From IMG/VR virus record IMGVR_UViG_2711768073_000011: a stretch of 11,213 bases of DNA. One strand, written 5' to 3'. The first letter of the stretch is position 1; every line of letters begins with the position of its first letter. Of the stretch, positions 1 to 11,213 are shown piece by piece. The notes under the pieces are model-generated. The model was not told where the DNA came from and did no database searches. It saw only the letters and a list, made by a program, of their open reading frames with translations. The position numbers and the translations under genes were made by a program. The stretch is from a virus. Its lineage: Duplodnaviria > Heunggongvirae > Uroviricota > Caudoviricetes.

Positions 1-207
1 GACGGACGAACACTGGTTCAGACCGTAACGGGATCGCTGGCGTGCGGCGTTCTTGCCATGGCCGTGGCCGGGTCGTTGCGCTTCTTCGGGTTTCCTGAAG
101 ATGCCGTGACGTTTATCGGCGCATCAATCGGTTTTATGGGTGCAGAGAAAGCACGCGACAAGGTTATTGCGGCCTTTAATCGCAGGGTGAAGGAGAAGGA
201 CGAATGA
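1..207 (+). CDS. holin, C-terminal fragment (5' end lies outside the window)
   Basis: Frame 1 is open from base 1 to TGA at 205-207 and reads ...TLVQTVTGSLACGVLAMAVAGSLRFFGFPEDAVTFIGASIGFMGAEKARDKVIAAFNRRVKEKDE*. It has small-residue hydrophobic stretches followed by a charged tail. Its stop overlaps the endolysin start (ATGA), and it sits immediately upstream of the endolysin. No start codon is visible in the window. Confidence 0.45.
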   Translation, partial: DGRTLVQTVTGSLACGVLAMAVAGSLRFFGFPEDAVTFIGASIGFMGAEKARDKVIAAFNRRVKEKDE

Positions 208-596
208 GCAACACATTTAAATTCAGCAGCCGGAGCGAAAAGAATTTGCAGGGCGTAAATCCTGATCTGGTGAAAGTGACCCGACGGGCACTGGAAATCT
301 CGGAAGTGGATTTTGGTATCACCGAAGGGTTGCGCAGCCGTTACCGCCAGAAGCAACTGGTGGCCACGGGTAAGAGCCAGACCATGAACAGCCGCCACCT
401 TACGGGGCATGCCGTGGATGTTGTGGCTTATATCGGCAGCCAGGTGTCATGGGAATGGCCGCTGTACGAAAAAATCGCAGCAGCATTCAGACAGGCCAGC
501 CGGGAACTGAATATTCCGGTGGAATGGGGCGGCGACTGGAAGACCCTGAAAGACGGACCGCATTTTCAGTTACCACACGGAGCCTATCCGGCATGA
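204..596 (+). CDS. endolysin, peptidase M15 (VanY-like L-alanyl-D-glutamate endopeptidase) family
   Basis: 130-aa ORF with an AGGAG Shine-Dalgarno about 8 nt upstream of the ATG. It contains the M15 zinc-binding signatures S-R-H-L-T-G-H-A-V-D and D-G-P-H-F-Q, and has the size typical of a small phage endolysin. It is followed directly by the spanin pair. Confidence 0.85.
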   Translation: MSNTFKFSSRSEKNLQGVNPDLVKVTRRALEISEVDFGITEGLRSRYRQKQLVATGKSQTMNSRHLTGHAVDVVAYIGSQVSWEWPLYEKIAAAFRQASRELNIPVEWGGDWKTLKDGPHFQLPHGAYPA

Positions 597-1000
597 AGCT
601 CTGGCCCACGCTTGGCGTCGCTTTCCTTCTGATTGCCGGATGGGAAACATCCATGCGTCTGTCGTGGTCGCTGGGCCGGGAGAACGCCAGAAACGAAGCG
701 CAGGCCAGCGCCCTGAAAAGTACCGCCGACACCCTGAATATCATCAGCGCCGGGGTACAGGATATGCAGCAGGTGCTGGCGCAACTCCGCGTGGAAAATC
801 AGCAACGCAATCAGGACGGAGAGGTAAGACGTGAACAGCTACGCAACGATATTGCAAAAGATGAATGCGCCCACGCTTTGCCTGACGCTCGTTTTACTGA
901 CAGGCTGCGCAGGCACGCAGAACGCGCCACTGCCAGCGCCGTCAGTCCGGCTTATACCGCAGACGCTGACCATACCGGTAACGCCGCCCCCCTTCCCTGA
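593..1000 (+). CDS. i-spanin (Rz / P2 LysB-like), inner-membrane subunit
   Basis: ATG at 593 overlaps the endolysin stop (ATGA). The product begins MKLWPTLGVAFLLIAGWETS, an N-terminal transmembrane segment, followed by a charged Q/R/E-rich, probably coiled-coil region. The ORF track's longer 449..1000 ORF is an in-frame upstream extension running through the endolysin, so the internal ATG is preferred. Confidence 0.75.
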   Translation: MKLWPTLGVAFLLIAGWETSMRLSWSLGRENARNEAQASALKSTADTLNIISAGVQDMQQVLAQLRVENQQRNQDGEVRREQLRNDIAKDECAHALPDARFTDRLRRHAERATASAVSPAYTADADHTGNAAPLP

Positions 1001-1151
1001 TACTCCCACATGGGGAAATCTCGGTATATGGGGCGACCGCCTTCTGGATGCACTGGAAACCTGTAACGCGGATAAACGGGCCATTGAATTACTGGAACAG
1101 CGCAGGCTGCAACGACTGAACAACGAGGACAACAACCATGCTGAAAACTGA
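861..1151 (+). CDS. o-spanin (Rz1 / P2 LysC-like) outer-membrane lipoprotein
   Basis: ORF in a different frame that starts inside the i-spanin gene and extends past its stop. From the second Met it reads MNAPTLCLTLVLLTGCAGTQNAPLPAPS, a signal peptide with an LTGC lipobox followed by a proline-rich mature part. The start could alternatively be the ATG at 831. The stop overlaps the start of R. Confidence 0.75.
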   Translation: MNAPTLCLTLVLLTGCAGTQNAPLPAPSVRLIPQTLTIPVTPPPFPDTPTWGNLGIWGDRLLDALETCNADKRAIELLEQRRLQRLNNEDNNHAEN

Positions 1152-1605
1152 TTCCCTGCGTGAAGCCATGACCCGTTCATGCCGATGGTGTCAGGCCAAC
1201 CCGGAAAAATTCACCATTTTCGTGGAGAGCGGCAACATTGAAACGACCGGAGAAACGCCCTCGTTTGTTTACCGCTATCAGATGGTGATGTTTGTCATGG
1301 ATTACGCCGGGGAGCTGGACGACCTCACGCTGCCGCTGCTGGCGTGGTTATCCGAAAATCAGCCACAGTTGTTGCTCAACCCTGAGCGTAATCAGGACAT
1401 CAAATTCTCCGCCGTTATCAATGACGATGACAGCGCCGATCTCCTGTTTACGCTCCCCCTGCGGGAACGCGTTCGCATCACGCGCAGCAGTCAGGGGACA
1501 CCGCAGGCAGAACACCTGCCGGAGCCAAAACCCCGCCTGCCATCTCCCGAAGGCGACTGGTCGCATGTATTCCAGGATGTGACGTGGGGTGAAAGCGATG
1601 GATAA
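1138..1605 (+). CDS. R: tail completion protein (P2 gpR-like)
   Basis: 155-aa ORF immediately after the lysis cassette and before S, the position gpR occupies in P2. The size matches my recollection of P2 gpR. It is translationally coupled to both neighbours. Confidence 0.8.
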   Translation: MLKTDSLREAMTRSCRWCQANPEKFTIFVESGNIETTGETPSFVYRYQMVMFVMDYAGELDDLTLPLLAWLSENQPQLLLNPERNQDIKFSAVINDDDSADLLFTLPLRERVRITRSSQGTPQAEHLPEPKPRLPSPEGDWSHVFQDVTWGESDG

Positions 1606-2233
1606 GGCATTCACCCGCGTGGATGAAACCTTTGAGGCTATCCGCGACAGCCTGAATCAGCAGGCCATCAATAACATCGCCAGAAAGCTGGCACAGGATT
1701 TACGCCGCGCCCAGCAGGCGCGTATCCGGTCACAGAAAGCGCCGGACGGGACCGCGTGGACACCACGCAGACGCCGCGTAACCCGGATACAGGAGCGCAT
1801 TCGCTTTATCTGGACTAACGAAGCACGCACGCTGAAAAACTGGCATCACGACACGGGGAAATACGGGCGAACCATTACCGGGTGGGATGAGGATAAAAAC
1901 AATATCCGCACGTTTTACCGGGATGACATCGACCGTTTTCTGGAAATACGCACCCGGCGCATCAACCAGGACAGCACAAAGCGCGTCCCCATGTTCGTAA
2001 AACTGCGCACCGCCCGCTACCTGAAAGCCCGTGCAGATGCTTCCGGTGTGACGGTGGGTTACAGCGGCGTGGCCGCACGTATTGCCCGCGTTCATCAGTT
2101 CGGTGAGCGCGATCAGGTTGCGCCGGGCATTTTCACCGATTACCCGGTACGTGAGCTGTTGGGCATCAGTCAGGCAGATGAACGCCTGATTTATAACACG
2201 GTGCTGGGCCGGATTGCGGAGGCTGTACGGTGA
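1598..2233 (+). CDS. S: tail completion / virion morphogenesis protein (P2 gpS-like)
   Basis: ORF between R and V. ATG at 1598 overlaps the R stop (ATGGATAA); a GTG at 1589 is an alternative start. Its stop overlaps the GTG start of V (GTGA). The call rests on position and coupling; the product is basic and Arg-rich. Confidence 0.75.
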   Translation: MDKAFTRVDETFEAIRDSLNQQAINNIARKLAQDLRRAQQARIRSQKAPDGTAWTPRRRRVTRIQERIRFIWTNEARTLKNWHHDTGKYGRTITGWDEDKNNIRTFYRDDIDRFLEIRTRRINQDSTKRVPMFVKLRTARYLKARADASGVTVGYSGVAARIARVHQFGERDQVAPGIFTDYPVRELLGISQADERLIYNTVLGRIAEAVR

Positions 2234-2545
2234 GCGCAGAACTCATGCGACTGCTGAGCAACATCATCCGCACTGGGATCATCTCTGAAGTTGATGAGAA
2301 GTCCTGGTGCGTGCGCGTTCGCAGCGGCGAACTGGAAACAGGCTGGTTGCGCTGGAACACCACGCGCGCGGGAGCCTTCAATGTGTGGCTGCCGCCATCA
2401 CCCGGCGAACAGGTGGTAATTGCCTGCATTGGCGGCAACCCGGAAACCGCCATGATAATTGGCAGCCTGTGGAGTGATGCCAATCCGGCCCCCGGCAAAA
2501 GCCTGAAAGAAATCGTGGTCAGCGCGCCGGATGGCGCGGTGTTCC
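2230..2545 (+). CDS. V: baseplate spike protein (P2 gpV-like), copy 1, 3'-truncated by the N gap
   Basis: GTG start overlapping the S stop; reads MSAELMRLLSNIIRTGIISEVDEKSWCVRV... up to the N run at 2546. Identical to the first 105 codons of the complete copy at 4066. Confidence 0.7.
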
Positions 2546-2556
2546 NNNNNNNNNNN
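2546..2556. other. assembly gap (11 N)
   Basis: Run of n characters lying exactly at the junction between duplicated blocks. Confidence 0.97.
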
Positions 2557-2974
2557 TAACGAAGCACGCACGCTGAAAAACTGGCATCACGACACGGGGA
2601 AATACGGGCGAACCATTACCGGGTGGGATGAGGATAAAAACAATATCCGCACGTTTTACCGGGATGACATCGACCGTTTTCTGGAAATACGCACCCGGCG
2701 CATCAACCAGGACAGCACAAAGCGCGTCCCCATGTTCGTAAAACTGCGCACCGCCCGCTACCTGAAAGCCCGTGCAGATGCTTCCGGTGTGACGGTGGGT
2801 TACAGCGGCGTGGCCGCACGTATTGCCCGCGTTCATCAGTTCGGTGAGCGCGATCAGGTTGCGCCGGGCATTTTCACCGATTACCCGGTACGTGAGCTGC
2901 TGGGTATCAGCCAGGCAGATGAGCGCCTGATTTATAACACGGTGCTGGGCCGGATTGCGGAGGCTGTACGGTGA
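2557..2974 (+). CDS. S: S-like gene, 5'-truncated fragment (divergent middle copy)
   Basis: Resumes S in frame at the equivalent of position 1816 straight after the N gap and ends at the same GTGA junction. Four synonymous differences from copy 1 lie near its 3' end. Confidence 0.65.
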
Positions 2975-3552
2975 GCGCAGAACTCATGCGACTGCTGAGC
3001 AATATCATCCGCACCGGGATCATCTCTGAAGTTGATGAGAAGTCCTGGCGCGTGCGCGTTCGCAGCGGCGAACTGGAAACAGGCTGGTTGCGCTGGAACA
3101 CCACGCGCGCGGGAGCCTTCAATGTGTGGCTGCCGCCATCACCCGGCGAACAGGTGGTAATTGCCTGCATTGGCGGCAACCCGGAAACCGCCATGATAAT
3201 TGGCAGCCTGTGGAGTGATGCCAATCCGGCCCCCGGCAAAAGCCTGAAAGAAATCGTGGTCAGCGCGCCGGATGGCGCGGTGTTCCGCTACGACGCAGAC
3301 GCTGGCGCACTGAGCGCCAGCGGCATGAAAACAGCCACCCTGCAGGCATCCGTCAGCGTGACACTGGATACGCCCGTCGTGGAATGCACAAACCTTCTGA
3401 GAACAGCGACGCTTGACGTCACAAAAGGGGGAAAGATGAGCGGCAATATCACGCACAGCGGCGGCGATTTCACCTCAAACGGCATCACAGTGCATACGCA
3501 TAAGCACGGTGGCGTTAAAGGTGGCAGCGATTCGACAGGAGGCCCGCAGTGA
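2971..3552 (+). CDS. V: baseplate spike protein (P2 gpV-like), divergent middle copy
   Basis: 193-aa ORF with a GTG start. The C-terminal region is Gly/Ser/Thr-rich and carries the motif VHTHKHGG, the His-x-His pattern found at the apex of gpV-type spikes. Differs from the copy at 4066 by C27R, N/D and D/N substitutions. Confidence 0.85.
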   Translation: MSAELMRLLSNIIRTGIISEVDEKSWRVRVRSGELETGWLRWNTTRAGAFNVWLPPSPGEQVVIACIGGNPETAMIIGSLWSDANPAPGKSLKEIVVSAPDGAVFRYDADAGALSASGMKTATLQASVSVTLDTPVVECTNLLRTATLDVTKGGKMSGNITHSGGDFTSNGITVHTHKHGGVKGGSDSTGGPQ

Positions 3553-3899
3553 CAACCCGCTACACAGGAATGAACCCGGACGGAACGGGAAACCTGAACG
3601 ATATGGAGCACCTGAAACAGTCAGTCAGGGACATCCTGACCACCCCGCTGGCCAGCCGGGTTATGCGACGGGAATATGGCAGCCTTGTGCCTGATTTGAT
3701 TGACGAACCCATGAATAACACCACGCGTCTGCAATGCATGAGTGCTGCCGTGATTGCGCTGACACGATGGGAACCCCGCATTGCCCTGGACGCCATCGAC
3801 GTTGTCTGGAAGGCAGGAGGCCGCGCCGGGGTGACGCTGTCGGGCACTGTCATGCAGACCATGCAGAATGTTGAATTAACCATCACGCTGAGGGAGTAA
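3549..3899 (+). CDS. W: baseplate wedge protein (P2 gpW / GPW-gp25 family), divergent middle copy
   Basis: 116-aa ORF (MTTRYTGMNPDG...) with GTG start overlapping the V stop (GTGA). Size and position match P2 gpW. Confidence 0.85.
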   Translation: MTTRYTGMNPDGTGNLNDMEHLKQSVRDILTTPLASRVMRREYGSLVPDLIDEPMNNTTRLQCMSAAVIALTRWEPRIALDAIDVVWKAGGRAGVTLSGTVMQTMQNVELTITLRE

Positions 3900-3902
3900 A
3901 TC

Positions 3903-4009
3903 ATGCCTGCCGTTGACCTTTCACAGTTACCGGACCCCGCCATCATCGCGGAGCCTGACTTTGAGGCAATTCTGGCTGACACAAAGGCCATGATGATTGC
4001 GTCCTATCC
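3903..4009 (+). CDS. J: baseplate protein J (P2 gpJ-like), 5' fragment truncated by the N gap
   Basis: ATG at 3903 preceded by GAGGGAG; reads MPAVDLSQLPDPAIIAEPDFEAILADTKAMMIASY before the N run. Same as the start of the complete J at 4998. Confidence 0.65.
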
Positions 4010-4019
4010 NNNNNNNNNN
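4010..4019. other. assembly gap (10 N)
   Basis: Run of n characters lying exactly at the junction between duplicated blocks. Confidence 0.97.
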
Positions 4020-4069
4020 GCCTGATTTATAACACGGTGCTGGGCCGGATTGCGGAGGCTGTACGGTGA
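4020..4069 (+). CDS. S: S-like gene, 3'-terminal fragment after the gap
   Basis: Last 16 codons of S (...LIYNTVLGRIAEAVR*) in frame, ending in the GTGA overlap with V. Identical to copy 1. Confidence 0.5.
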
Positions 4070-4647
4070 GCGCAGAACTCATGCGACTGCTGAGCAACAT
4101 CATCCGCACTGGGATCATCTCTGAAGTTGATGAGAAGTCCTGGTGCGTGCGCGTTCGCAGCGGCGAACTGGAAACAGGCTGGTTGCGCTGGAACACCACG
4201 CGCGCGGGAGCCTTCAATGTGTGGCTGCCGCCATCACCCGGCGAACAGGTGGTAATTGCCTGCATTGGCGGCAACCCGGAAACCGCCATGATAATTGGCA
4301 GCCTGTGGAGTGATGCCAATCCGGCCCCCGGCAAAAGCCTGAAAGAAATCGTGGTCAGCGCGCCGGATGGCGCGGTGTTCCGCTACGACGCGGACGCAGG
4401 CGCACTGAGCGCCAGCGGCATGAAAACGGCCACCCTGCAGGCATCCGTCAGTGTGACACTGGACACGCCCGTCGTGGAATGCACAGACCTTCTGAGAACG
4501 GCGACGCTTGACGTCACAAAAGGGGGAAAGATGAGCGGCAATATCACGCACAGCGGCGGCAATTTCACCTCAAACGGCATCACAGTGCATACGCATAAAC
4601 ACGGTGGCGTTAAAGGTGGCAGCGATTCGACAGGAGGCCCGCAGTGA
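4066..4647 (+). CDS. V: baseplate spike protein (P2 gpV-like)
   Basis: 193-aa ORF with GTG start. Its first 105 codons are identical to copy 1 at 2230. Carries the same VHTHKHGG apex motif. Confidence 0.88.
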   Translation: MSAELMRLLSNIIRTGIISEVDEKSWCVRVRSGELETGWLRWNTTRAGAFNVWLPPSPGEQVVIACIGGNPETAMIIGSLWSDANPAPGKSLKEIVVSAPDGAVFRYDADAGALSASGMKTATLQASVSVTLDTPVVECTDLLRTATLDVTKGGKMSGNITHSGGNFTSNGITVHTHKHGGVKGGSDSTGGPQ

Positions 4648-4994
4648 CAACCCGCTACACAGGAATGAACCCGGACGGAACGGGAAACCTGAACGATATG
4701 GAGCATCTGAAACAGTCAGTCAGGGACATCCTGACCACCCCGCTGGCAAGCCGGGTTATGCGACGGGAATATGGCAGCCTTGTGCCCGATTTAATTGACG
4801 AACCCATGAATAACACCACTCGTCTGCAATGCATGAGTGCTGCCGTGATTGCGCTGACACGATGGGAACCCCGCATTGCCCTGGACGCCATCGACGTTGT
4901 CTGGAAGGCAGGAGGCCGCGCCGGGGTGACGCTGTCGGGCACTGTCATGCAGACCATGCAGAATGTTGAATTAACCATCACGCTGAGGGAGTAA
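4644..4994 (+). CDS. W: baseplate wedge protein (P2 gpW / GPW-gp25 family)
   Basis: 116-aa ORF with GTGA overlap to V. The protein is the same as the middle copy; differences are synonymous. Confidence 0.88.
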   Translation: MTTRYTGMNPDGTGNLNDMEHLKQSVRDILTTPLASRVMRREYGSLVPDLIDEPMNNTTRLQCMSAAVIALTRWEPRIALDAIDVVWKAGGRAGVTLSGTVMQTMQNVELTITLRE

Positions 4995-4997
4995 ATC

Positions 4998-5894
4998 ATG
5001 CCTGCCGTTGACCTTTCACAGTTACCGGACCCCGCCATCATCGCGGAGCCTGACTTTGAGGCAATTCTGGCTGACACAAAGGCCATGATGATTGCGTCCT
5101 ATCCCGCCGAACAGCGTGAAGCCGTTTCCGCCGCGCTGGAGCTGGAATCGGAACCCCTTAACGTTATCGCTCAAACCATGTCGTTTCGTGAAATGCTGTT
5201 ACGCCAGCGGGTCAATGAGGGTGCACGCGCCTGCATGCTAAGCCACAGCGCCGGGACAGACCTGGACAACCTCGCGGGCAATATGAACACAAAGCGCCTG
5301 GTTATCACTCCGGCAACGGATACCACCGACGCAGTGATTGAAAGTGACACCTCGCTGAGACTACGGGCGCAACGGGCATATGACGGTCTGAGTGTTGCTG
5401 GCCCGTCAGGTGCATACGAGTATTTTGCACGCAGCGCCAGCGGTCTGGTACGCGATGCGCGGGCCATCAGCCCGTCTCCGGCCAACGTGACGGTTTCCAT
5501 CCTGTCCACTGAGGGCGACGGCACAGCAACGGAGGCGTTGCTTAATACCGTTCGCGCCGTTCTGAATGCAGAGGATACCCGCCCGGTGGCCGACCGCCTG
5601 ACCGTACAGAGCGCCAGCATCGTGACATGGCGGCTGAATGCAAAACTGTACTTTTACCCCGGTCCGGAATCCGAACCTATTCTGGCCGCGGCGGAATCGT
5701 CATTCAGGAAGTGGCTGGCTGAACAGGGGCTTATCGGTCAGGACGTGGCGTTGTCCGCCATTGCTGCCGCACTTCATGTACACGGCGTGCAACGCGTGGA
5801 GATAATCGAACCCACACAGAATATGGCCATCAGCGACATACAGGCGGCGCGCTGTGAGTCATTCACCATCAGCGAAGGTGGGCGTAATGAGTAA
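4998..5894 (+). CDS. J: baseplate assembly protein J (P2 gpJ-like)
   Basis: 298-aa ORF with a GAGGGAG Shine-Dalgarno. Size and position after W match P2 gpJ. Its stop overlaps the start of I. Confidence 0.9.
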   Translation: MPAVDLSQLPDPAIIAEPDFEAILADTKAMMIASYPAEQREAVSAALELESEPLNVIAQTMSFREMLLRQRVNEGARACMLSHSAGTDLDNLAGNMNTKRLVITPATDTTDAVIESDTSLRLRAQRAYDGLSVAGPSGAYEYFARSASGLVRDARAISPSPANVTVSILSTEGDGTATEALLNTVRAVLNAEDTRPVADRLTVQSASIVTWRLNAKLYFYPGPESEPILAAAESSFRKWLAEQGLIGQDVALSAIAAALHVHGVQRVEIIEPTQNMAISDIQAARCESFTISEGGRNE

Positions 5895-6417
5895 TTCACT
5901 GTTACCGCCATCAGCCAGCAATTTCATGCGTTGTGCCGAAGCTGTCGGAACGCGCATTACAGACATCCCGGTAGACCTCAACACGCTGTGGTCGCCGGAC
6001 ACCTGCCCGGTGCACCTGCTGCCTTATCTCGCCTGGGCATTTTCCGTTGACCGCTGGGATCGCAACTGGCCGGAAGAGACAAAACGACAGGTGATTCGTG
6101 ATGCATGGCTGATACACCGACACAAGGGAACCATCAGCGCACTGCGCCGGGCCATTGAGCCGCTGGGATACCTCATTCGTGTGTCTGAGTGGTGGGAGTT
6201 CGGCGGAGAACCGGGAACATTTACCGTTGAAGTGGGCACGCTGGACAGTGGCGTGACGGAGGAAATGTATCTGGAAATGGAGCGGTTGATTGCTGATGCC
6301 CGCCCGGTCAGCCGCCACATGACAGGGCTGAATATCATTCAGGAGATTCCGGGGGATATTTTCGCGGCGGCAGCAACTTACGACGGTGAAGTCATTACCA
6401 TTTATCCGGACGATTAA
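5887..6417 (+). CDS. I: tail / baseplate protein I (P2 gpI-like)
   Basis: ATG at 5887 (MSNSLLPPSASNF...) overlapping the J stop, giving 176 aa. The ORF track's longer form from 5854 is an upstream extension inside J. Confidence 0.85.
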   Translation: MSNSLLPPSASNFMRCAEAVGTRITDIPVDLNTLWSPDTCPVHLLPYLAWAFSVDRWDRNWPEETKRQVIRDAWLIHRHKGTISALRRAIEPLGYLIRVSEWWEFGGEPGTFTVEVGTLDSGVTEEMYLEMERLIADARPVSRHMTGLNIIQEIPGDIFAAAATYDGEVITIYPDD

Positions 6418-6419
6418 GC

Positions 6420-9011
6420 ATGAGTACCACAACACGAAAATTTAAAACCGTTATCACCGATACGGGTGCAAAAAAATTAGCTCAGGCAGCCGCGCCAGAT
6501 GGTAAGCCTGTCCGCCTGACTCATATGGCCGTGGGCGACGGTGGCGGCACGTTGCCCACACCAGACAGTAAGCAGACCCGTCTGGTGCATGAGGTGTGGC
6601 GACATACTGTTAATCGCGTCATCCTGGACGCAACACATCAGAACCGCATTATTGCGGAGCTGGTTATTCCTCCTGAAACGGGCGGATTCTGGATCCGGGA
6701 AATTGGTGTATTTGATGAGCACGGCGATTTGATCGCGGTGGGCAATACTGCGGAAAGTTACAAGCCAGCCGTTGCCGAAGGATCCGGACGTGTACAAACA
6801 TTTCGCACCATTCTGACCGTATCCAGCACTGCCACCGTGGCGCTTACCGTGGATAACACCATGGTTATGGCCACAGTGGATTACGTGAATGACAAACTGA
6901 AAGAACATGAACAGTCACGACGTCACCCGGACGCCTCGCTGACCGCAAAAGGCTTTGTTCAACTCAGTAGCGCCACCAACAGCACGTCTGAAACACTGGC
7001 CGCAACGCCGAAAGCGGTAAAGGCCGCGTATGACCTTGCTAACGGGAAATATACCGCACAGGACGCCACCATAGCGCGAAAAGGCCTTGTCCAGCTCAGT
7101 AGTGCCACCAACAGCACGTCTGAAACGCTCGCCGCAACGCCGAAAGCGGTAAAGGCAGCATATGACCTTGCTAACGGGAAATACACTGCACAGGACGCCA
7201 CCACAACGCGAAAAGGCCTTGTCCAGCTCAGTAGTGCCACCAACAGTGATTCTGAAACGCTTGCGGCAACGCCAAAGGCGGTAAAGGCAGCATATGACCT
7301 TGCTAACGGGAAATACACTGCACAGGACGCCACCACAGCGCGAAAAGGTCTTGTCCAGCTCAGTAGCGCCACCAACAGCACGTCTGAAGCATTGGCCGCA
7401 ACACCGAAAGCGGTAAAGGCCGCGTATGACCTTGCTAACGGGAAATACACTGCACAGGACGCCACCACAGCGCGAAAAGGTCTTGTCCAGCTCAGTAGCG
7501 TCACCAACAGCGATTCTGAAACGCTTGCGGCAACGCCAAAGGCGGTAAAGGCCGCGTATAACCTTGCTAACGGGAAATACACTGCACAGGATGCCACTAC
7601 AGCGCGAAAAGGTCTTGTCCAGCTCAGTAGCGCCACCAACAGTGATTCTGAAACGCTGGCCGCAACATCAAAAGCGGTGAAGTCTGCCTATGACAATGCT
7701 GAAAAACGTCTTCAGAAAGATCAGAACGGTGCGGATATTCCGGGAAAGGATACCTTCACGAAAAATATCGGTGCCTGTCGTGCTTATAGCGGCGCTTTGA
7801 GCACTGAAGCCGGAAACTGGACAACCGCTCAGTTTATTGAATGGCTGGATTCCCGTGGTGCATTTAATCATCCGTACTGGATGTGCAAAGGCTCATGGTC
7901 ATATGCAAATAACAAAATCATTACGGATACCGGATGTGGTGATATCCACCTGGCTGGTTGTGTCGTCGAGGTCATGGGAACTAAATCTGCAATCACTATC
8001 CGAGTAACCACGCCGACAACATCAAGTGGTGGCGGTACAACCAGCGCACAATTCACTTACATTAATCATGGGGACGGCTACTCCCCCGGCTGGCGTCGTG
8101 ACTGGAATCGTCAGGGCGACTCAATGACCGGAACGATTAATCAGGATGGCGGAAGCCAGAATGCCTATATGTCTACGGCCTTATGTTCAGGCACCAGAGG
8201 CGGCAAAAAATATCTCAGAAAGTTTCGTGGTGGAGAAGGAGATACTATCTGGCATGAAACAGTACAGGGCGGGGTAATTCGCTGGGCGACAGGAAACTAT
8301 GACGCTCAGGAAGAATTATCACTCAGCTCCGCTTATGGTCTCCGTTCAAGAGGTGAGATTACATCACTCAGTGCTAATGGTCTGCGCATTGCTTATGGCA
8401 ATTATGGATTCTTTATCAGGAATGATGGCGGCAGCACATATTTAATGCTGACGGCCTCTGGCGATAAATTTGGGACATGGAACGGCTTAAGACCGCTGAC
8501 TATCAATAACGCCAATGGCGGAGTGTCAATGGGGCATGGCCTGAGTGTTACAGGTGATATTGTCTCAAGTACCAAAGTACGTGCCGGTAGCGGGAAAAAG
8601 TTCACGGTCAGCAGCAGCAATACATCAACGAAGGAAGCCGCATTCAATTTGTGGGGAAACGCAAGTCGTCCTGTGGTGGCTGAATTAGGTGATGATGCAG
8701 GCTGGCATTTTTACAGTCAGAGAAATACAGATAACAGCATCACTTTTGCTGTTAACGGGCAGGTATCACCATCTAACTATGGCAACTTTGATTCACGCTA
8801 TGTCCGGGATATTAGACTTGGTGGCGCGTCATCCTATAAACCAGCAAATAACGGTACAACATGGACGCATCAGGCTCCATCTGGTTGCGTATATACCGGG
8901 ATTATCGTTCAGGATACAGGCTCAAACTCTGCCGATAATATTGGTGGTGTTTATTACAGACCAATTCAAAAAAATATTAATGGTACATGGTATAACGTAT
9001 CGAGTGTTTGA
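6420..9011 (+). CDS. H: tail fibre protein (P2 gpH-like) with an internal tandem repeat array
   Basis: 863-aa ORF. The N-terminal ~170 aa (MSTTTRKFKTVITDTGAKKLAQAAAP...HMAVGDGGG...IIAELVIPPE...EHEQSRRHPDASLTAKGF) matches what I recall of the conserved gpH N-terminal domain. It is followed by six 44-aa repeats and a Gly/Asn/Ser/Thr-rich distal region. Confidence 0.9.
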   Translation: MSTTTRKFKTVITDTGAKKLAQAAAPDGKPVRLTHMAVGDGGGTLPTPDSKQTRLVHEVWRHTVNRVILDATHQNRIIAELVIPPETGGFWIREIGVFDEHGDLIAVGNTAESYKPAVAEGSGRVQTFRTILTVSSTATVALTVDNTMVMATVDYVNDKLKEHEQSRRHPDASLTAKGFVQLSSATNSTSETLAATPKAVKAAYDLANGKYTAQDATIARKGLVQLSSATNSTSETLAATPKAVKAAYDLANGKYTAQDATTTRKGLVQLSSATNSDSETLAATPKAVKAAYDLANGKYTAQDATTARKGLVQLSSATNSTSEALAATPKAVKAAYDLANGKYTAQDATTARKGLVQLSSVTNSDSETLAATPKAVKAAYNLANGKYTAQDATTARKGLVQLSSATNSDSETLAATSKAVKSAYDNAEKRLQKDQNGADIPGKDTFTKNIGACRAYSGALSTEAGNWTTAQFIEWLDSRGAFNHPYWMCKGSWSYANNKIITDTGCGDIHLAGCVVEVMGTKSAITIRVTTPTTSSGGGTTSAQFTYINHGDGYSPGWRRDWNRQGDSMTGTINQDGGSQNAYMSTALCSGTRGGKKYLRKFRGGEGDTIWHETVQGGVIRWATGNYDAQEELSLSSAYGLRSRGEITSLSANGLRIAYGNYGFFIRNDGGSTYLMLTASGDKFGTWNGLRPLTINNANGGVSMGHGLSVTGDIVSSTKVRAGSGKKFTVSSSNTSTKEAAFNLWGNASRPVVAELGDDAGWHFYSQRNTDNSITFAVNGQVSPSNYGNFDSRYVRDIRLGGASSYKPANNGTTWTHQAPSGCVYTGIIVQDTGSNSADNIGGVYYRPIQKNINGTWYNVSSV
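6948..7700 (+). repeat. six tandem in-frame 132-bp repeats (44-aa KGLVQLSSATNS[TD]SETLAATPKAVKAAYDLANGKYTAQDATTAR units) inside H
   Basis: Unit starts at 6948, 7080, 7212, 7344, 7476 and 7608; the last unit decays after about 30 codons. The units are near-identical at protein level with scattered nucleotide differences. They resemble the short repeat motif known from phage tail fibres. Confidence 0.9.
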
Positions 9012-9013
9012 TT

Positions 9014-9547
9014 ATGATGCATTTAAAAAATATAAAACCGGGCAATCCAAAAACAAAAGAACAGTACCTGTTAACTAAAAACTCCGGCGTTGTCTGGTTA
9101 TTCGCTGAAGATGGTAAAAACTGGTATGAGGAACAAAAGAACTTTCAGCCAGACACCATAAAGATTGCATATGATGAAAATAATGTCATATGCGACGTGC
9201 AAACGGATGTAACTGCAATTTGCCCGGAAGGAAAAAGTGTTGTCGAGTTGCCTAATATTACAGCAAACCGACGCGCTGATATTTCAGGTAACTGGATGTT
9301 TAAAGATGGCTCAGTCATTAAACGTGTGTATACCGAAGAAGAGCAACGCTTGCAGGCTGAAAACCAGAAACAAAGGTTATTACAGCAGGCCAGAGAAAAA
9401 ACGCAGTTCTGGCAGACCCAGCTTGCATTAGGGATTATCAGTGATTCAGATAAGCAACAACTGATGCGCTGGATGCGGTACGTGCAACAAGTTGAGACCA
9501 CTGATACCACTGAATTACCCGTTACGTTCCCTGATCAACCAGAATAA
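9014..9547 (+). CDS. G: tail fibre assembly protein / chaperone (P2 gpG / Tfa family)
   Basis: ORF directly after H; the ATG at 9014 (or 9017) lies just after the H stop at 9009-9011, and the ORF track's TTG at 9008 is less likely. About 177 aa. The position and the Q/E-rich C-terminal part (QFWQTQLALGIISDSDKQQLMRWMRYVQQVE) are typical of Tfa proteins. Confidence 0.8.
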   Translation: MMHLKNIKPGNPKTKEQYLLTKNSGVVWLFAEDGKNWYEEQKNFQPDTIKIAYDENNVICDVQTDVTAICPEGKSVVELPNITANRRADISGNWMFKDGSVIKRVYTEEEQRLQAENQKQRLLQQAREKTQFWQTQLALGIISDSDKQQLMRWMRYVQQVETTDTTELPVTFPDQPE

Positions 9548-9551
9548 ACGA

Positions 9552-9590
9552 AAGGCCCGAATATCGGGCCTTATCGTTATTTCTGTTTAT
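9552..9590 (+). terminator. rho-independent terminator after G (possibly bidirectional)
   Basis: Stem aaggcccg (9552-9559) / cgggcctt (9565-9572) with loop aatat, followed by the T-rich tract atcgttatttctgtttat. It sits in the 68-bp gap between the convergent G and U genes. Confidence 0.6.
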
Positions 9591-9615
9591 CTAACTATTT
9601 GTGATTTGCGTTAAA

Positions 9616-10110
9616 TCAGAACAGTCCCTTAACAGAACTGACCGCACTGTTAAGGGATGACGCCACCTTATCTTTGAAGCCGGACAGCATATCGCTGAAC
9701 GATGAGGATTGCAGGCGCTCCCGCAAATCCTCATCACAGCGTTCAAGGGTCAGTGAAAATTCTATCTTTTTCGCCTTACCGTAGCGATCAAACTCGGAAC
9801 GGGTCGTATTCGTTCCGGTCAGGACATACATGCCGTAAATCTGCCCGACGCCATCAATCAGAGGCCAGGGGCGTCCTGTATACGCCTGCGTGGTCAGCAG
9901 CGACAGCGACACTTCGCCACCTGTAATTTCAGGATAAAGCACACCAGAAAGAACGATGCGATCATCACCTGCACCGATATACTGCCATCTTGCTGAACGG
10001 TTAACGCGTTCATTTTTTACATGCCGCCAGCTTTTGTTTTGCTGTAACTGCTGATGCGGCAATGTGCGCAGCTCAAAAACAAACATGCCGTAGATCATCA
10101 TCATGGCCAT
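9616..10110 (-). CDS. U: tail protein U (P2 gpU-like)
   Basis: 164-aa ORF on the - strand (MAMMMIYGMFVFELRTLPHQQ...GVLYPEITGG...WPLIDGVGQIYGMYV...KIEFSLTLERCDE). Motifs and size match my recollection of gpU, and it lies immediately after the tape measure gene on the same strand. Confidence 0.8.
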   Translation of the reverse strand: MAMMMIYGMFVFELRTLPHQQLQQNKSWRHVKNERVNRSARWQYIGAGDDRIVLSGVLYPEITGGEVSLSLLTTQAYTGRPWPLIDGVGQIYGMYVLTGTNTTRSEFDRYGKAKKIEFSLTLERCDEDLRERLQSSSFSDMLSGFKDKVASSLNSAVSSVKGLF

Positions 10111-10116
10111 GACTCC

Positions 10117-11213
10117 TCAATCTTTATCGTAAAAACTGCCACGCCCGGCACGGGTACGCCGATCCAGTTCTGCCCTGACCATTTCACCGACCAGTTTCGC
10201 CAGTTCGCGGGGATTCTGCGTAACAACGTTATGCAGATGAACATGAATTTCACCGCAAAATCCGGAGACAGCAGGCTCCCGGTTACGGGAAGTTGCAGGA
10301 ACTGATGCCACTGGCGATCGTATGGCCTCCGCCACCGGGCGGGAGCTGGCCGCAACAACAGGGACCAGCGCCGGAGGCAGCGGAGCCGGGACCACAGGTG
10401 TGATGTTGATTGCGGAAGCAGGCTTACTGACCTGCGCAATCTTCCGCTCCTGCCACTCCCCACGAACAGCAAGTGCGCGGGGCAGGTTCTTAAAGACAAT
10501 ATCGCCAGGGCCAATGCGTTTTTTCGTCTCATCAACCAGCTTACCTGTGTTATCAGCAATTTTGCTGAGTCTGCGTAGCGTCCCGGTATTGCTGTCTGTG
10601 AGCGGTTTGTTGTCTTTGGGTTTATCACCTCCGGTGCCATTGCCATTTTCCACAGGCTTCGGCGGATTGATTTTCGCAAGGTCCCCCTGAAGCAAGGCAA
10701 CCTTGTCCTGAAGAATGGCCGCACGCTGTGCGTCTTCGATTTTCTTGCGCGCCTTTTCCGCTTCATCCGGAAGGACGCCAAGTTTTTCAAGTATCCACGC
10801 CAGCGTATCCAGTAGCATTTTTGCAGGTGTCAGAACAAGTTGTAACGCACCGCCAAGAACGTTACCGAATATCTCGCCAGCACTGGTACATTTATCCAGC
10901 GTTTCCTTGCTGGACTCCATCGGTGACAGCAGCGATTTAAACCAGTTAAACACCTGGCTGATCCCGCTTCCGATTGCGTCAAAAACAGGACCAAACCGTT
11001 CAAAGGTTTCGCGCAACGGGGTCAGCCTTTCCATAATCCCGCTGAACACCCCGACAAAAAATGCCCTGATGGGATCCCAGTATTTCCAGATAAGAACGGC
11101 AGCTCCGGCAAGCGCAGCCACGATAAGACCAACCGGACTGATCAGCGCCCCGATAGCGCCTCCCAGTAAAGAAACGGAACCCGTCACCATTCCCCATAGT
11201 GCTGGCAGGACCC
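10117..11213 (-). CDS. T: tail tape measure protein (P2 gpT-like), C-terminal part; 5' end outside the window
   Basis: The - strand reading frame is open to the window edge; the ORF track's Met at 11190 is internal. It contains a hydrophobic stretch (GAIGALISPVGLIVAALAGAAVLIW) and charged, probably coiled regions typical of tape measure proteins, and lies directly upstream of U. Confidence 0.75.
   Translation of the reverse strand, partial: VLPALWGMVTGSVSLLGGAIGALISPVGLIVAALAGAAVLIWKYWDPIRAFFVGVFSGIMERLTPLRETFERFGPVFDAIGSGISQVFNWFKSLLSPMESSKETLDKCTSAGEIFGNVLGGALQLVLTPAKMLLDTLAWILEKLGVLPDEAEKARKKIEDAQRAAILQDKVALLQGDLAKINPPKPVENGNGTGGDKPKDNKPLTDSNTGTLRRLSKIADNTGKLVDETKKRIGPGDIVFKNLPRALAVRGEWQERKIAQVSKPASAINITPVVPAPLPPALVPVVAASSRPVAEAIRSPVASVPATSRNREPAVSGFCGEIHVHLHNVVTQNPRELAKLVGEMVRAELDRRTRAGRGSFYDKD

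Follow-up and report, generated by a model that had tools for sequence, protein, structure and literature searches.

A false triplication of tail genes S, V and W in a P2-family prophage scaffold of Escherichia coli, and the two natural haplotypes it contains

Genes of the window and the layout of its contigs

The stretch of DNA analysed here, called the window throughout, is the 11,213-bp virus record IMGVR_UViG_2711768073_000011, in which part of a phage tail-gene cluster (genes S, V and W) appears three times in a row, the middle copy differing in sequence from the other two. The window is the entire whole-genome shotgun (WGS) record CYGD01000051.1 of the Escherichia coli draft assembly GCA_001284425.1, runs of N included; no paper mentioning GCA_001284425, CYGD01 or CTZ86723 was found in the literature. 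Its genes are those for lysis, tail completion and the baseplate of a P2-family (Peduoviridae) prophage. On the plus strand lie a partial holin gene, an M15 endolysin gene, LysB, R, S, V, W, J, I, the tail fibre gene H and the chaperone gene G, in that order, and these are followed on the minus strand by U and a partial tape-measure gene. The genes R, S, V, W, J, I, H and G are collinear with those of a Peduoviridae module and belong to matching families, including a gpV-type spike with a histidine-rich apex. Indeed, Pfam assigns to the genes of the record the families P2_Phage_GpR, Phage_tail_S, Phage_base_V with Phage_spike and Apex, GPW_gp25, Baseplate_J_N/M/C, Tail_P2_I, Phage_tail_fib, Caudo_TAP and Phage_P2_GpU.

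The window is a scaffold of three contigs, which we call A, B and C. Contig A (1-2545, plus strand) carries the partial holin gene, those for the M15 endolysin, LysB, R and S, and V as far as codon 105; it ends at a gap of 11 N (2546-2556). Contig B (2557-4009, plus strand, 1453 bp) is the middle copy, an alternative haplotype that holds codons 77-214 of S (2558-2974), the whole of V (2971-3552), the whole of W (3549-3899) and J up to codon 35 (3903-4007), all on the plus strand. A second gap, of 10 N (4010-4019), separates it from contig C (4020-11213), which begins with the 3' end of S and continues on the plus strand with V (4066-4647), W (4644-4994), J (4998-5894), I (5887-6417), H (6420-9011) and G (9014-9547), and on the minus strand with U (9616-10104) and the partial tape-measure gene T (10117-11190). 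Both N runs are present in the deposited record itself, and the blocks on either side of them are cut in mid-gene, at codon 105 of V, codon 76 of S and codon 35 of J.

The triplication of S, V and W is an artefact of assembly and scaffolding, because three overlapping contigs have been laid end to end with N spacers between them. Self-BLAST of the window finds that the end of contig A (2184-2545, plus strand) and the start of contig C (4020-4381) are 100% identical over 362 bp, an unmerged overlap within one haplotype; because of this identical overlap, copy 1 is the left part and copy 3 the right part of a single sequence. With the redundancy removed, by joining window positions 1-2545 to 4382-11213, the collapsed sequence of 9377 bp is collinear with eight related prophages (loci L001 and L003-L009 of our comparison) and aligns to them without a gap at 98.98-99.70% identity. 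A reading in which the prophage truly carries S'-V-W-J' three times in tandem, one copy having diverged, draws on the raw look of three similar blocks in a row and on nothing else. Both junctions of the supposed repeat consist of N instead of sequenced bases, its units are not whole but truncated at arbitrary intragenic points in V, J and S, its first and third blocks are halves of one copy, and the related prophages match the collapsed sequence gap-free over its full length. We rejected a real tandem repeat on the N junctions and the overlap geometry, and the probability we leave it is very slight. In addition, the window starts and ends inside prophage genes, and the same prophage sits elsewhere in contigs of 84-440 kb.

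The arrangement resembles the haplotigs, or unpopped bubbles, of scaffolded short-read assemblies, in that a small contig repeats the interval of its neighbours with short N runs on either side. As in such cases, the ends of contig B are identical to the neighbouring contigs, the single-nucleotide polymorphisms (SNPs) are confined to its core, and the breaks fall at boundaries of repeat identity. It differs in the origin of the redundancy: the bacterium is haploid, and two prophages (or strains), not diploid heterozygosity, account for it. As deposited, the record misleads counts of baseplate genes, prophage typing and the inference of recombination, and the value of the present result lies mainly in quality control. 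Three gene calls of the record, at 2230-2559 (109 aa), 2531-2974 (147 aa) and 3903-4025 (40 aa), have no Pfam match and are spurious, being fragments of V, S and J produced by the contig joins; the V fragment reads into the N run, and V and W are annotated twice.

By its sequence, the phage is P88-like and probably belongs to Xuanwuvirus (Peduoviridae). The 1453-bp middle block matches Escherichia phages P88, 503458, 520873, 500465-2, P884B11 and PhiR44_2 at 97.4-98.4% identity; P88 and four others of these matched phages are classified as Xuanwuvirus, Peduoviridae, a comparison made over the 1453-bp block of a window whose unique sequence amounts to 9.4 kb. Prophages of the P88/Xuanwuvirus type share with the window the order R, S, V, W, J, I, H, G, followed by U and T on the opposite strand, and we see no difference in kind between them and the prophage of the window. 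The original prediction, made from the window alone, had called the element a P2-like prophage, which is right at the level of the family, but the element is closer to P88 (97-98%) and has only about 50% protein identity to P2.

Two haplotypes of S, V and W

The middle block is the counterpart of 1816-2545 together with 4382-5104. Self-BLAST aligns 1816-2545 with 2557-3286 (730 bp, 7 mismatches) and 2925-4009 with 4020-5104 (1085 bp, 17 mismatches), in both cases without gaps. As three sites fall in both overlaps, the unique differences between the middle block and the collapsed copy 1+3 number 21 in 1453 bp (1.45%). All 21 lie at block offsets 343-1168, in a variable core at 2900-3725 (plus strand), and the first 343 bp and last 285 bp of the block are identical to the other haplotype. 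The differences comprise 18 transitions and 3 transversions, with no indels and no change in the length of any homopolymer. The synonymous ones number 18, of which S has 4, V 9 and W 5; the three non-synonymous ones all fall in V and change, from the flank allele to the middle allele, C27R (3049), D141N (3391) and N166D (3466), turning the peptides SWCVRV, ECTDLL and GGNFTS into SWRVRV, ECTNLL and GGDFTS. With a pN/pS of 0.054 and a deficit of non-synonymous changes significant at p = 6e-9 (binomial test), the differences in S, V and W are kept mostly synonymous by strong purifying selection, which illustrates what is already known of the baseplate genes of P2-family prophages.

These results bear out what the original prediction had said of the middle copy. 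It had described a distinct haplotype with at least 7 and at least 17 substitutions in the two overlaps, counted by eye, and these minima prove to be the exact counts; the strings it quoted from the 3' end of S and from the three altered V peptides are likewise exact, as is its description of the pattern as mostly synonymous. It had also held that these are real, selected alleles and had named homopolymer errors as what would undo that view, and none of the 21 sites alters the length of a homopolymer.

Sequencing or consensus errors in a low-coverage contig B would offer a simpler account of the differences, and the small size of that contig speaks for it, though nothing more does. The absence of indels and homopolymer changes, the 18:3 ratio of transitions to transversions and the low pN/pS all stand against error, as does the recurrence of all 21 alleles (21/21) in independent E. 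coli genomes. We rejected the explanation on these grounds and regard its probability as practically nil.

Both haplotypes are, in fact, found in nature. All 21 middle alleles occur in the complete genome OSUCMP42NDM (L001), from which contig B differs at 4 sites. Among eight other loci that encode a tail fibre H identical to the 863-aa protein of the window, seven have the middle allele at every one of the 21 sites, the exception being L005, a mosaic. The exact DNA of contig B was not found elsewhere, the best match having 4 mismatches. The flank haplotype is equally well documented: the tract of contigs A and C at 1816-5017, which holds 1366 bp of unique sequence (1816-2545 and its right-hand part, 4382-5017, plus strand), is 100% identical to a prophage of E. 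coli 88_1577 (L002), which departs from the window at positions 1815 and 5018, its flanks being 2-3% divergent. At least 60 complete genomes share the SNP-dense 449-bp core of this tract at 100% identity, among them strains of serotypes O104:H4, O26:H11, O103:H2 and O111:H11. The differences are ordinary standing polymorphism of the tail-completion gene S and the baseplate spike and wedge genes V and W, and we hold it to be close to certain that the triplication is an artefact and, at the same time, that the two haplotypes are real.

The module as a whole is widespread: of 5426 complete E. coli genomes, 1063 (about 1 in 5) carry it, at 1196 places in all and up to three per genome. Matches of at least 99% among the complete-genome records number 14 for the middle type and 95 for the flank type, and neither allele is more than a minor haplotype in what is a highly polymorphic and mosaic population. 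The window illustrates what is already known of P2-family prophages in E. coli, namely that they are common, mosaic and often carried two to a genome. As a side observation on gene S, an unannotated stretch of 271 bp in the 254-kb record of Aeromonas phage AP1 (MT713136.1, 242157-242427) is 99.6% identical to S of E. coli prophages, and looks like a contaminating or chimeric fragment in this jumbo-phage record.

The three amino-acid changes can be placed on the known spike structure of phage P2. V matches P2 gpV (3QR8) with E = 2e-51 over the OB-fold, the beta-helix and the apex, and it has the Pfam families Phage_base_V, Phage_spike and Apex in common with the P2 spike (PDB 3QR8, 3AQJ). The likeness has its limits, as about half of the residues are identical and V, at 193 aa, is 18 residues shorter than the 211-aa P2 protein. 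The motif VHTHKHGG of V aligns with LHTHKHPG of P2, and its HTHKH is kept in both alleles. A histidine motif reportedly holds an iron ion at the tip of such spikes, and VHTHKHGG is presumably that motif in V. Of the three variable positions, 27 belongs to the N-terminal OB-fold, 141 to the beta-helix and 166 to the apex region, nine residues ahead of H175, the first histidine of HTHKH. The middle allele has R27 and N141 in agreement with R32 and N161 of P2, and its D166 aligns with E186, a conservative difference; the flank allele (C27, D141, N166) is unlike P2 at all three positions.

In public data, at least 1000 contigs encode the exact flank V protein. The exact middle V protein is encoded by about 18 others, the longest of 440 kb, on differing synonymous DNA backgrounds. 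The combination of residues in the middle protein (R27, N85, N141, D166) is not that of its nearest relatives, which have S85; both combinations, together with the third that has S85, are widespread. The changes in V are standing polymorphisms that are reassorting by recombination, and nothing in the sequences would point to a functional difference between the alleles. We also considered whether contig B might be a chimeric consensus, and rejected this since the exact middle V protein on about 18 other contigs marks it as a natural allele. Programmed variation of the spike, of the kind produced by a diversity-generating retroelement (DGR), was rejected as well: adenine stands at 6 of the 21 sites in one allele and at 4 of the 21 in the other, and the changes, 18 of 21 of them synonymous, are distributed across S, V and W. 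For the called genes of the window, the Pfam table of the record lists no reverse-transcriptase family.

Phase and source of the two haplotypes

The closest relative of the window, locus L009 (GCA_030001295.1), differs from it outside the variable tract only at 1639, 10840 and 10845, over about 8 kb. Within the tract, L009 is of the middle type and differs from contig B at 4 sites, and swapping contig B in for the tract leaves 7 differences from L009. Among the 5426 complete E. coli genomes, none exceeds 99.2-99.3% identity across the junction segments 1001-2545 or 4382-6400, and each half of these junctions alone finds matches of 99.7-100%. Contig B appears, from this comparison, to be the allele that belongs with the scaffold flanks and the tail fibre, and the tract of copies 1 and 3 to be the odd one. 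The view that the middle copy is the outlier holds insofar as it is a distinct haplotype; set against the closest relatives, the oddity falls on copies 1 and 3.

Along the scaffold, contig A is of one lineage, which we call Y (L009-like), at 1-1815 and carries alleles of a second lineage, X (88_1577-like), at 1816-2545, and contig C stays X-like as far as 4889 and has become Y-like by 5018. The main contigs A and C of the deposited record probably join sequence of two different prophages. Lineage Y would be a prophage like L009 and that of OSUCMP42NDM, bearing the 863-aa tail fibre, and lineage X, like the prophages of 88_1577, O104:H4 and O26 strains, would be the source of the tract in A and C. 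We think it quite likely that Y consisted of the left flank, contig B and the right flank.

The places where the contigs break or switch are informative in this respect. Taking L009 as a proxy for Y and L002 as a proxy for X, we listed all identical stretches between them (n = 331, median 16 bp). The longest, of 474 bp, holds the first base of the scaffold, and the second-longest (343 bp, 1816-2158) starts exactly at the first base of contig B, at the point where contig A turns from Y to X. Contig B ends one base before 5105, a site that discriminates L002 from the window, and the last base of the scaffold lies in an identical stretch of 162 bp (rank 11 of 331). The pattern of breaks is that expected from co-assembly of reads of two related prophages, in which phase would be lost in the long stretches that X and Y share and contigs would stop or switch haplotype there. 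A contig of locus L018 (Logan SRR060744_328) ends at the same base as contig B (window 5104) and one of L021 within 2 bp of it, which suggests a recurrent branch of the assembly graph at the polymorphic site 5105 in unrelated public assemblies. The geometry of the contigs also suggests that X-like sequence in the sample reaches well beyond V and W and spans at least the interval between the holin and tape-measure genes.

The scaffold may have arisen as follows. The read set would have held two genuine, closely related P88-like (Xuanwuvirus) prophage genomes, the likeliest source being two prophages resident in one chromosome. The assembler would have been unable to phase across the long X/Y-identical stretches, contig A would have switched from Y to X within the 343-bp stretch at 1816-2158, and contig C would have switched back from X to Y somewhere in 4890-5017. 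S'-V-W-J' in its true Y form would have been left as an orphan, contig B, which the scaffolder would then have placed between A and C. To this explanation as a whole (a mis-joined scaffold, an X and a Y prophage, and their co-residence) we give a probability of about 60%; the phase and the co-residence are what we infer in it.

Several observations weigh against this explanation. The two ends of contig B are the only ones flush with discriminating sites (1815 and 5105), and the ends of A (2545) and of C (equivalent to 2184) are not, nor are those of the scaffold; the distances from contig ends to such sites accordingly yield no k-mer size for the assembler. Contig B has the X, or flank, allele at four sites (3126, 3144, 3224 and 3794) and matches no relative exactly. 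Prophages of this kind are highly mosaic, so that phasing by comparison can mislead. Among the matches listed, no complete genome has both a middle-type and a flank-type segment at 99% or above, and the flank type is typical of Shiga toxin-producing (STEC) and enteroaggregative (EAEC) E. coli, the Y type of enterotoxigenic E. coli (ETEC) and livestock isolates. Perhaps the X-type tract of A and C and the four X-type alleles of B result from gene conversion between actively exchanging co-resident prophages in one isolate, although we regard this as improbable.

The phase, in particular, could be read in another way. The collapsed sequence of A and C might be a real and recent recombinant, in which a Y-like prophage gained an X-like S-V-W tract of 1.4-3.3 kb, and contig B might derive from another element or strain, in which the middle alleles have different flanks. 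Mosaicism of the kind required is visible, as L005 and L011 mix both allele sets, the middle V protein occurs on several DNA backgrounds, and L019 and L020 are elements that combine a middle-type V with X-like alleles at 1815 and 5105; recombination, moreover, favours long identical stretches, which is compatible with the position of the switch. Yet the arrangement is found in 0 of the 5426 complete genomes, nor does any other contig that encodes this tail fibre show it. It also needs two haplotypes that are otherwise unseen, whereas the two required by a mis-joined scaffold of X and Y match known ones at 99.9-100%, and it leaves unexplained why the scaffold ends in prophage genes where X and Y are identical. 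We consider a genuine recombinant unlikely.

As for the source of the two haplotypes, the original prediction had offered a second, closely related prophage or a mixture of strains. Two natural prophage lineages were indeed found, and the choice between these sources stays with our estimates of probability. Carriage of two such prophages is common: there are 133 extra places among the 1063 carriers, and two places occur in 5 of the 15 best middle-type matches and in 11 of 60 flank-type matches (60 of the 95 records being listed). The chromosome of E. coli HCP5S3_I2 (NZ_CM149870.1), for example, is closed and contains two complete P88-like prophages, at 1.32 and 2.40 Mb, which differ from each other at 19 sites in the same 1453 bp (1.3%), against 21 in the window. 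This double lysogen differs from the present case in that its second prophage is another allele mosaic, and in the strain of the window co-residence is what we infer. In one of the HCP5S3_I2 prophages, the tail-fibre gene is split by an IS3-family transposase (L012 12304-13532, corresponding to NZ_CM149870.1 1329292-1330520), and this prophage, to judge from its interrupted gene, probably cannot make infectious particles.

Under a strain mixture or cross-contamination, the haplotypes would come from two E. coli strains, one with a Y-like and one with an X-like prophage, and would have been interleaved by the assembler and scaffolder. Such a mixture predicts the same contig geometry and the same natural alleles as co-residence, and it gains from the two points named above, the association of X tracts with STEC and EAEC and of Y prophages with ETEC and livestock genomes, and the separation of the two haplotypes among the matches listed. 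Against it stand the frequency of double P88-like carriage and the presence of the X tract in the main contigs and of Y in the orphan, from which we would expect comparable depth and not a minor contaminant. A weak hint in the same direction is the record number 51 for an 11-kb scaffold, which fits a moderately contiguous assembly. On balance, a mixture of strains is a doubtful explanation, if somewhat less so than the recombinant phase, and it is rather likely that both prophages were carried in the same genome.

Lysis genes, minus-strand genes and the tail fibre

Some further features of the window deserve mention. At about 954-1151, related genomes annotate a LysC/Rz1-like gene that overlaps the end of LysB (DUF2570), and in the record of the window 1000-1138 is left uncalled. 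At the other end, U and the tape-measure gene (9616-11190) are on the minus strand, opposite to V, W, J, I, H and G, as in annotated P88-like prophages, in which the sheath, tube, E, T and U genes are all on the minus strand and D is on the plus strand. In phage P2, FI, FII, E, T, U and D are transcribed in the direction of V to G.

The tail fibre gene H contains, at 6947-7694, 5.7 tandem copies of a 132-bp unit with 89% matches, which corresponds in the fibre shaft to about six copies of the 44-aa repeat GLVQLSSATNSxSETLAATPKAVKAAYDLANGKYTAQDATxARK. The fibre of the related prophage L011 has 775 aa, compared with 863 aa in the window, and the difference of 88 aa equals two repeat units, which suggests that the number of repeat copies may vary. 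In the region of the H C-terminus and the chaperone gene G (8500-9500), G+C content is 0.41-0.45, compared with 0.55-0.60 in the baseplate genes, and 7700-9547 is matched by 905 genomes, only 147 of which cover at least 80% of it. The H C-terminus and G look like a separately exchanged host-range cassette.

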